From: Trichodelitschia bisporula
Taxonomy: Eukaryota
Length of the DNA stretch: 64,000 bases
Reading direction: 5' to 3'
Assembly: GCA_010356995.1 (NCBI GenBank)
Contig: ML996688.1
Span: forward strand, 1,302,001-1,366,000
Position numbers and translations under genes: made by a program. The notes below the pieces were generated by a model, which had not been told where the DNA came from, made no database searches, and worked only from the letters and a program-made list of their open reading frames with translations. The number at the start of each line of letters is the position of its first letter. Within the stretch, counting starts at the first letter, position 1. This document shows positions 46,338 through 49,390 of this stretch, one piece after another.

Positions 46338-47740
46338 TGGGGGCGGTAGGGTGAGGGGCTATCGACAGAAAGGGATGCTAGATGTGTAAGAGTAGACGAA
46401 GATGAGGAAGGAAGAGTGGGTAAGTAGGCAAAAAGAGAGAGTTGGAGGGAGTGAAGAAGCTTTTGTAGGTGATGGGGGAGCACAGAAGGGGCACATGGGA
46501 GAAAGAGCTAGGAACAAATACCCGATTATAAAGAAGCACGGTTCACCTGAACCCGATCAATCAGCCATCCGGAGTCGGACAGCATCATGTACCCATCCAG
46601 TCAGGGAGATGCCACGCAAAGAGCCACAGCGCTAGTGGAGTCGCGGTCAGAGAATTGAGTTGGCCTAGCCCTTGGGCATATTGGTCCTTGAGAATGACGA
46701 GGCTCGCTGTCGCCGACTCGATACGCACCCACAACAGGTGGAATTTCGTGAACCTTTTAATGTATCAAAAGACGACATTGCTTGATACTCTATTTCTTCC
46801 TCCATCTCCCATCCCATCTCTCTCTCCCTCTCCCCTTCTCTCTATCTTGACCCCCAACTATGTTTTCCTCTGCATTCAAACCGAGGCGCGTCCATGTTCT
46901 CGACTTCCATGTCTTGGCTCTTCAACAACCCACCCCGGTCAGGTACCGACAAGGTCCAATCACTAGCCGAAGCCTGCGGATCATCCCATTGAGGACTAGC
47001 TAATCGTCGGCATACCCTCCATCCGTCTTCCCGGCGAGCTTACCAACACTTCAAACCAGCTGCTGAGTTTAACAATCATACAGCCCTACACCATGTAACC
47101 ATACTGCGCACTCATCACCAATGTTTGGACGAGTCAGATAGCACGCTTGGGCATTACCTACTCTCGTCGGCGTGCTTATCGCCCGTTGTTCCATCGAAAG
47201 CTCATTCCCGTGTTAATTTATCATCCCCTTTGCTGATTGCTTTGTCTGGCTGATCAAGCGGGTCTGCTCCAGCGTGTGGTGGCACGACGGTAGACCCGCT
47301 CCCCCATCCCTTCCCTACTTTGGGGCTGAGAAGGCAAGACATTCGATACTCACATCCTGTGGATCTCAAGGGCCTTCCTTGGTTGGCGGAACAGCCTTCG
47401 ATCACCAGTCACTGAAGCAATACCACCACGTTCACATGTCAGCCTGGTCTTAGGTAAGCTTCGTGTTGGAGACGGCATTGATTCTGAAAAAGCTGCATTC
47501 CCGCTGGAGGCCATTGGGTATCCCTCATAACGATACAGCGCTACGTAGTGCTAGGTATATCGGACGAGTGCGAGAGAGATTGTGGAATATGAAAGCCCAC
47601 CGCTCCCGCCGACGCTGCAAGCCGATAACACCTGCTTAGGCCTTCGTTGAGCCCAGTATAAAGTGCGAACGACGCCCGTGGACACCCTGCTAATCCCACT
47701 CCGACCGAGAGGACCAAAGGCCCCATCAGTCATGCAACCT

Positions 47741-48516
47741 TTACTCCACATCGCCCTTGCCCTCGAAATTCTCGCCGGCAACGAGGTCGGGGATGTCATC
47801 ATCATCATCCTCGTCATCTTTCTTCTCACCCTCCCCACCCTCCTTCTTCTGCATGTTCTGGTACGACTCGGCCAGCTTGCGCAGCGACGCGAGCGAGTCG
47901 GGGCCGAGCTGGTTCAGGATGCCAGGGACGAGCTCAGTGAGTTCCTTGTCCTCACCGTTGCCGTAGATGGCGAAGGTGTTGGCGGGAACCGAGGCGTGGA
48001 CTACGTCGCTTGTCAGAACCGCAAACCCCAGCAACCGTGGCCGATGCTCCAGCATCCGCACAGTCCAATCATGTATGAAGCTCACCCTTGGGGGCCGCGA
48101 AGTGAATCACGTTGCCATCGCTCTTGAACATGTTGACCTCCTCAATCGCCTGGATGGGCTGAACGTTCAGCTTCTTGAGCGCACCCTGCAGCTTCTTGTC
48201 GTCGGTGCCAGCGCTCTTGTGGACCTTCTTGACCTTCCGCCGAGGAGTGCCCTTGCCGCTACCGTTGTATTAGCTCGAGCACAGAGTCCCGCTGTCCGGG
48301 ATGCGGGGAAGAGTTTGGAAAGAGGCATCGAGGGTGGTGCGGTGTCGAACAGGAGAAGCGACTTACCCTACATGCCGAAGCAACGTTAGCAGCTACGCGA
48401 CATAAAAGCTTTTTGCATCACAACATATGACAACATATGATTTGTAGACGAGGGTAGAACGTGGACTCACCAATGCGGACATTGGCCTGCATGCGAGCCA
48501 ACTTTGCTTGATCCAT
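47741..48516 (-). CDS. EGD1: Nascent polypeptide-associated complex subunit beta (BTF3/EGD1); exons 48516-48471, 48367, 48258-48086, 48000-47741
   Basis: [63 protein letters not shown]. Requires a 1-nt exon at 48367. Confidence 0.95.
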
Positions 48517-49390
48517 GATTGAGGTTGGTGGGGGGTTGCTAGGACGGGGCGGATCCTATTCCGAGAGACATCGTCAGCGACTCGAAATAAAACTGGTCAA
48601 ACAGGGTGAGGGAGCCTACCTAGCGGGGTTTTGTGATGGCAAAATGGAGTGGTTGCAGAGGTGGAGTGAAGGTTGGAGGTAGGTGAAGTCGGCAAGGCCA
48701 CAAGAAACTCCGAATGTGCGCCTCCATGCGGCTCGCTTAACGCCAAAATTCAGCAATTGTGGCGGTGCACTCTGCGGGGTACTGCCCTCGAACCTGACGT
48801 CAAACATTTGATATGGCTCACATTCGTTAGGACAATAGCCTATAAAGTTCTCTCGCTGTTTTCTATCGGCGTATAATTTGGAAAGAAGAGTGGTGGCGTA
48901 AATGGGTAGAGAAGCATAGTGCCACTCTTTCTTAGGCGACATACCTCGTCATTGTAGGCAATAGGTGACGGGAGAACCAACCGCACAATGTGGTTCGGAG
49001 AATAGTCTATATAGTTACTGCTCTACCTTTTCGCATTTATGTAGGTACTCTCTCTTCTAAATCAAGCGTTCGACACGACATCTACAGTCTCAAAATATGC
49101 AAGATGCAGCAGCCAAAAGCTCCACGTTATTGACGTTGATGAGCACATCAGGACATACTCTCTATGACGCACACTATTGTGCAACCAACCCACCGTGAAA
49201 CGAATGCAGCTCATAGGCACCACACCGCTTCCGGAATCATCCAAAGCCGAACCAAACCGGAACGCCAGCGCTATGCATAACTACAAGTTATAAACGACAA
49301 AATTCAAGCGTCAAACCGCGCCCCGCGCCAGCAGCAAACACCACACCACGGACGCCTCCGGTTGAATATGTACAAAAGGAGAGTAGGGTA

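Follow-up and report, generated by a model that had tools for sequence, protein, structure and literature searches.

Exons of a single base mark the physical limit of what the spliceosome can define, and very few have been documented, two by the count given in PMC12940212. The second of these, presented there as the first in a fungus, lies in the CYP621A P450 gene of Fusarium (Nelson & Syed 2026, PMC12940212). As that source describes it, the exon consists of one G, which occupies the middle position of a Gly codon in a conserved motif, sits in an AG|G|GT context between two short canonical introns and is supported by RNA reads and an alignment of orthologues, and nearly all automatic models are wrong at that site. 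The probable one-nucleotide exon described here, in the NAC-beta (EGD1/BTF3) gene of the filamentous ascomycete Trichodelitschia bisporula, resembles it in context, codon position and flanking introns, in its support from RNA and orthologues and in the failure of the automatic models. The two cases differ in that the former is restricted to some 20 Fusarium/Nectria orthologues of a P450 that is seldom expressed (PMC12940212), whereas NAC-beta is a highly expressed housekeeping gene and its exon is found in loci resembling five classes of Pezizomycotina.

In Arabidopsis, the origin of the single-nucleotide exon A333 of APC11 was proven by substitutions that appeared in the cDNA (Guo & Liu 2015, PMC4674806). 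As reported there, this exon is constitutive and internal, the reading frame depends on it and the database annotates it wrongly, like that of NAC-beta; unlike the latter, its base is an A, it belongs to a plant and its introns are longer in total (422 nt). The origin of the APC11 base was shown by mutagenesis (PMC4674806), whereas the NAC-beta G is placed by splice-site rules and conservation. According to a long-read annotation of Coprinopsis cinerea, 13 genes of this species contain 13 one-nucleotide exons (PMC12230235), which are fungal as well, but from a basidiomycete. The one-base exons mentioned for Yarrowia are first coding exons, which is a different thing (PMC2911113).

Touching introns are also found in stwintrons. 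In these, the donor, branch or acceptor of an external intron is split by an internal one and works only once the first excision has taken place, and in the alternative [D1,2]/[A2,3] type the internal introns overlap by one G (PMC5587772). As described in that source, stwintrons share with NAC-beta the presence of touching U2 introns in Pezizomycotina, the two splicing reactions and the failure of gene predictors; they differ in that both NAC-beta introns are complete, with one exonic base between them. An earlier note on this DNA had compared the NAC-beta arrangement with stwintrons, a comparison that we do not maintain, given that donor, CTRAY branch motif and YAG acceptor are uninterrupted in both introns. 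Recursive splicing offers another parallel, with juxtaposed AG|GT ratchet points, or zero-length exons, in the long introns of Drosophila and vertebrates, where the first ligation recreates the 5' splice site and keeps no base. Here too, an acceptor lies beside a donor within an apparent long intron, and removal is stepwise. In NAC-beta, by contrast, the second donor pre-exists, no order is fixed and the introns measure about 100 nt instead of many kb. A zero-length recursive site was itself considered for NAC-beta and rejected, as one G separates AG from GT and is retained in the mRNA. We found no literature linking NAC-beta, EGD1 or BTF3 to a one-nucleotide exon, in a search that lay mostly outside subscription journals and supplements.

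The gene lies on the minus strand within positions 47650-48760 of the window, that is, the whole stretch of 64,000 nt that was analysed, and carries four introns. A match to the NAC domain of Pfam (PF01849, E=2.1e-15) falls in its exon 3, and the closest homologues, with 80-98% identity, are named nascent polypeptide-associated complex subunit beta. One of these homologues (P0020, 96% identical) aligns to the BTF3 chains of solved structures with E=4.9e-48. Both the NAC domain and the basic N-terminus RIGGKGTxRRK, which together define membership in the NAC-beta family, are present. The window protein is nearest to proteins of Dothideomycetes (92.3%), and the peptide encoded by exon 1 is the same as that of Tothia fuscella.

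Read along the minus strand, the gene begins with a 5'-UTR intron of 64 nt (48556..48619; GTAGGC..GCTGAC..ATAG). The coding part of exon 1 (48471..48516) runs from the ATG to CGC ATT G and ends with the first base of the Gly16 codon. Intron 1 (48368..48470, 103 nt) has the donor GTGAGT, a branch motif GCTAAC at 48390-48385 and a TAG acceptor, and is followed by the single G at 48367, which we read as the second base of the Gly16 codon GGC. Intron 2 (48259..48366, 108 nt) starts immediately thereafter with GTAAGT and has a branch motif GCTAAT at 48274-48269 and a TAG acceptor. Exon 3 (48086..48258) opens with C GGC AAG GGC, providing the third base of Gly16 and the start of the NAC domain; it is followed by intron 3 (48001..48085, 85 nt; GTGAGC..CTGAC..TAG) and by the coding part of exon 4 (47741..48000), with the stop codon TAA at 47743-47741 and a 3' UTR that reaches at least 47650. 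A canonical acceptor with its branch motif thus precedes the lone base and a canonical donor follows it, both introns being complete. A script run on the window sequence confirmed, to the base, the coordinates and the exon/intron description that the earlier note had given.

Two sequencing runs, X1 and X2, both made from a single sample of this organism, provided the transcript evidence in the form of assembled contigs, in which rare forms are lost. That these runs represent RNA is a guess as far as their type is concerned, but the contigs lack all four introns, and for one of them, record 8 of X2, this means that it derives from spliced RNA. The contig has 821 nt and a word depth of 3722, matches the window without a single mismatch and covers positions 47650-48000, 48086-48258, 48470-48554 and 48619-48653. 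Contigs of both runs skip 85 nt between 48000 and 48086, corresponding to intron 3, and 64 nt between 48554 and 48619, where a cut shifted by +1 gives the GT..AG ends of the 5'-UTR intron. Inside intron 1, contig depth is zero in X1 and X2, and neither singly spliced intermediates nor lariats appeared among these assembled contigs, which are uninformative about such forms. At the critical joint, the X2 contig passes from 48258 to 48470 and skips 211 nt, neither 212 nor 208, indicating that the mature mRNA reads ATTG+G+CGGCAAG, that is, ATT GGC GGC AAG (VRIGGKGT). Two contigs of X1 have loose ends at 48259 and 48470 that agree with this junction. The skip of 211 nt and the frame together show an mRNA base that is contiguous with neither flanking exon. 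The mRNA junction predicted in the earlier note (...CGCATTGGCGGCAAG...) is matched exactly by the X2 contig.

For the extra G of the mRNA, 48470, 48367 and 48259 are equally good alignments, and the RNA alone cannot place it at 48367 for this reason; its origin follows from splice-site rules, by which AG|G|GT at 48367 is its sole canonical source, and from conservation, beyond the RNA. Natural variants are of no help here, since only GGN is allowed as the codon and G is also found at the adjacent splice-site positions. In a soil metatranscriptome (X3, share 0.04), which contains relatives only, loose contig ends read ..VRIGGK.., which we take as a hint only. A further contig of X1 (record 7, 1945 nt, spanning 48488-48760 and beyond) also has the 5'-UTR splice and extends upstream of the gene; with a depth of 641, compared with 3722 for the main transcript contig, it may represent a longer leader or an overlap with a neighbouring transcript.

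We translated six splice models, and the full protein of 160 amino acids with RIGGKGT was obtained only when 48367 was kept. Solved BTF3 chains (e.g., 7qwq_u) align without gaps through VRIGGKGT. Joining exon 1 straight to exon 3 shifts the frame, as the earlier note had claimed for skipping of the lone G, and leads to a stop after 45 codons. Inclusion of this G is nevertheless not the only way to mend the frame on paper: a weak donor GTCCAC at 48466, four bases further on and not mentioned in the earlier note, also restores it and gives IGDGKG. Use of that donor needs a skip of 208 nt, and with 211 nt skipped in the RNA contig we regard it as unused. A composite motif made up of CTRAY, 5-35 nt, YAG, any base and GTRHGH was found at a single place when both strands of the window were scanned, at 48367.

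To compare orthologous loci, exon 3 was aligned with full-length homologues and the alignment was used to scan metagenome contigs, which gave 568 pattern matches, 398 of them confirmed relatives; the best 80 of the 398 were taken, a choice biased to query-like sequences. Sixty-seven loci showed a recognisable exon 1 (..VRI) and G|GT...AGGGT...AG|N directly before GKGT, and nine others had the same layout when variant exon 1 peptides were allowed. Of the remaining four, three are intronless (L043, L047 and L075) and one is cut off upstream (L034). Among these best 80 of 398, the genomic loci that extend far enough upstream therefore all have the layout of two introns and one G (G|GT..branch..YAG|G|GT..branch..YAG|N), 76 of 76, so that the AG-G-GT arrangement, whose conservation the earlier note had proposed to check, is kept throughout. 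These loci and the RNA skip agree with its view that one Gly codon is spread over three exons and needs the G at 48367. Intron 3 likewise keeps its place, after ..AAPK G| and with GT following exon 3, in 76 of 76.

The window and the 76 loci make up 77 sequences, of which 64 are distinct. In 70 of the 77, window included, each of the two acceptors is preceded at 6-45 nt by a strict CTRAY branch motif; in the remaining seven the motifs come close to the consensus (e.g., ATTAAC or GCTAAA). Position counts were made on 59 distinct sequences. All of them have G as the lone base, 58 have C or T at position -3, and in the second donor A stands at +3 in 57 and G at +5 in 58. Exon 3 begins with different bases (A in 25, C in 22 and T in 12), as expected of a third codon position. 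Intron lengths vary across loci from 54 to 475 nt (intron 1) and from 70 to 252 nt (intron 2). Intron identity falls to 0.51-0.54 in distant pairs, compared with 0.51 for shuffled sequences, and follows, or is below, the identity at third codon positions. We looked across the loci for conserved intron elements other than splice signals and found none. Nor did introns 1 and 2 of the window show a meaningful similarity that might be a sign of duplication (identity of 0.59, compared with 0.51 in shuffled sequences).

Two groups of loci deserve separate mention. The locus L071 (about 300-582), nearest to Neohortaea/Zymoseptoria, has an extra phase-1 intron in exon 1 (MDHEKLA R|...|MQNAARI), which means that its first 17 codons are broken up by three introns, in agreement with the public model of Zymoseptoria, whose N-terminus is truncated (MQNAVRIGGKGT). 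The three intronless loci encode the whole protein and read R-I-GGN-GKG; they lack a terminal poly(A), none of the genomic loci compared matches them (best identity of 82.6%), and they may be transcripts or lineages with intron loss.

Taken together, these data lead us to propose, with a probability of about 0.9, that the NAC-beta gene contains two complete introns of the ordinary U2 type (103 and 108 nt) around a constitutive one-nucleotide exon, the G at 48367. The main competitor is a single intron of 211 nt with non-canonical ends, either TG..AG (48469-48259) or GT..TA (48470-48260), removed in one step and for which the internal AG-G-GT would be irrelevant. This is what the RNA alignment reads literally, depending on a shift of one base, and the mature mRNA that it predicts is identical. 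A single non-canonical intron, however, has no need of an internal branch site, acceptor and donor, and would leave unexplained why branch motif, YAG, G and GT are present in 76 of 76 loci within introns that are otherwise randomised; it is this combination that favours the one-nucleotide exon. In 11,800 shuffles of the 59 orthologous intervening sequences, an internal AGGGT arose in 15.3%, but all the signals that two introns require in only 0.30%. Each half, moreover, has the size of an ordinary intron, comparable with the other introns of the gene (64 and 85 nt), and to our knowledge neither TG..AG nor GT..TA belongs to a known class of spliceosomal boundaries, which also counts against a single intron. 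We consider it very improbable. Even less credit, practically none, can be given to an assembly or sequencing error by which a base would be absent from the junction, the gene really having one ordinary intron of 212 nt. Apart from the general possibility of such errors, nothing further speaks in its favour; against it stand the mismatch between exon 1, which ends in phase 1, and exon 3, which starts in phase 2, the presence of AG-G-GT in 76 of 76 independent loci and the agreement of the transcript contig with the window in all four pieces, which also contradicts the indel at the junctions that the earlier note had named as a refuting outcome.

An extension of the two-intron reading, not an alternative to it, is a regulated switch in which the one-nucleotide exon is skipped and the resulting frameshifted mRNA, sensitive to NMD, tunes NAC-beta dosage. 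The stop reached by the skipped form lies about 81 nt upstream of the junction between exons 3 and 4, making this form a plausible NMD substrate, and the arrangement has been kept for very long in a highly expressed gene. Such conservation is nevertheless explained equally well by the difficulty of a precise loss of one of two abutting introns, and the introns have no conserved sequence other than the splice signals. No joint of 212 nt, as exon skipping would give, and no cover inside intron 1 or 2 is listed in the assembled contigs of X1 and X2, where rare forms drop out, so that the missing joint weighs little against a switch. On balance we regard regulation of this kind as unlikely.

According to the two-intron reading, essentially all mature transcripts have lost both introns and keep the G, as the middle base of the first Gly codon of the conserved N-terminus. 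G is the preferred base both at +1 after a 3' splice site (YAG|G) and at -1 before a 5' splice site (G|GTAAGY), and this double preference probably explains why an exon of one nucleotide is tolerated. Recognition of both introns may be by intron definition, the usual mode for short introns in fungi. The pairing of U1 at AGG|GTAAGT would overlap the AG of the first acceptor, in which case two spliceosomes probably cannot assemble together and the introns would be removed one after the other. Sequential removal is a reasonable and probable inference, and either order is possible because the second donor is complete from the start. The donors give no hint about the order, with a mean of 4.95 and 4.97 matches, out of six, to GTAAGT. 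The persistence of the arrangement could result from purifying selection on the six splice signals of an important gene and also from the fact that one of two abutting introns is hard to delete exactly.

We also tabulated the junction in 70 NCBI-named NAC-beta proteins obtained from homologue searches. Only 14 of these models have the canonical R-I-G-G-K-G-T, 15 have one extra residue (RIG[H/T/I/D/E/N/A]GKGT), two lack one Gly, 30 have a longer insertion or intron read-through, eight have lost exon 1 and one has lost KGT. An extra residue, a missing Gly, a read-through or a lost N-terminus thus makes 56 of the 70 sampled models wrong, right beside the ribosome-binding RRK motif. The aberrant models include Orbiliomycetes, Pezizomycetes, Eurotiales (Rasamsonia), Candelina and Chaenotheca. 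So many wrong public models are attributable to the inability of gene predictors to model an exon of one nucleotide, and the errors form the pattern expected if predictors, restricted to exons of more than one base, patch the mismatch between phases 1 and 2 with the nearest cryptic site. The RIGDGKGT-type models of several species, for example, look like a predictor's use of a donor similar to GTCCAC. Among unnamed proteins, all 27 that truly span the junction read R-I-G-G-K-G-T; of six apparently aberrant ones, five turned out to be spurious regex matches in intron read-through ORFs and the sixth is a partial NCBI model (P0221, RIGKGT), which likewise lacks one Gly.

As a separate observation, in the 25 of 59 distinct loci whose exon 3 begins with A the acceptor reads YAG|AG|G. 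Exon 1 joined to the second AG, two bases on, would there give an in-frame protein one Gly shorter (RIGKGT), which is exactly the form found in the public models of Orbilia and Thelocarpon and in P0221.

The taxonomic placement of the loci, made by the nearest named protein over exons 3 and 4 (107-144 aa), is soft because this protein is very conserved. All 79 loci scored, drawn from the best 80 of 398 and including the intronless ones, were tallied. We assigned 48 loci to Dothideomycetes (identity of up to 100% with proteins of Alternaria or Ophiobolus), 11 to Leotiomycetes (e.g., 98.5% to Oidiodendron), eight, with one more uncertain, to Lecanoromycetes (e.g., 98.6% to Pleopsidium) and five to Eurotiomycetes (95-97% to Knufia). 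Six were assigned to Pezizomycetes, comprising the genomic L018, L052, L059 and L064 (93-96% to Sphaerosporella) and the intronless L043 and L075 (about 95% to Choiromyces, Tuberaceae), and one, the intronless L047, to Orbiliomycetes (99.3% to Orbilia). Lineages were checked for eight named species, and the remaining ones presumably belong to the classes given here. The genomic loci with the layout have their nearest named relatives in five classes of Pezizomycotina, namely Dothideomycetes, Leotiomycetes, Lecanoromycetes, Eurotiomycetes and Pezizomycetes. Since Pezizomycetes branch near the base of the subphylum, the presence of the arrangement in loci resembling them makes a single early origin the simplest reading, and the arrangement most likely predates the radiation of Pezizomycotina. 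Losses in Sordariomycetes or Eurotiales, whose DNA lies outside the sample, are possible.

A bolder scenario would be that the one-nucleotide exon arose once before this radiation, is the oldest and most widely conserved one known, and was kept because occasional skipping, by way of frameshift, premature stop and NMD, ties chaperone output to the fidelity or capacity of the spliceosome, acting as a dosage throttle. We regard this scenario as speculative and quite unlikely.

On the evidence of the genomic loci compared, the NAC-beta exon appears to add to the known one-base exons a case with far deeper conservation than the earlier ones. A simple rule could fix annotation pipelines at the NAC-beta junction. 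The exon belongs to an abundant and easily assayed housekeeping transcript and appears to be fixed across a whole fungal subphylum. It would therefore be a natural system for studying how 3' and 5' splice sites one base apart are recognised, in which order the two introns are removed and why such an arrangement was never lost.
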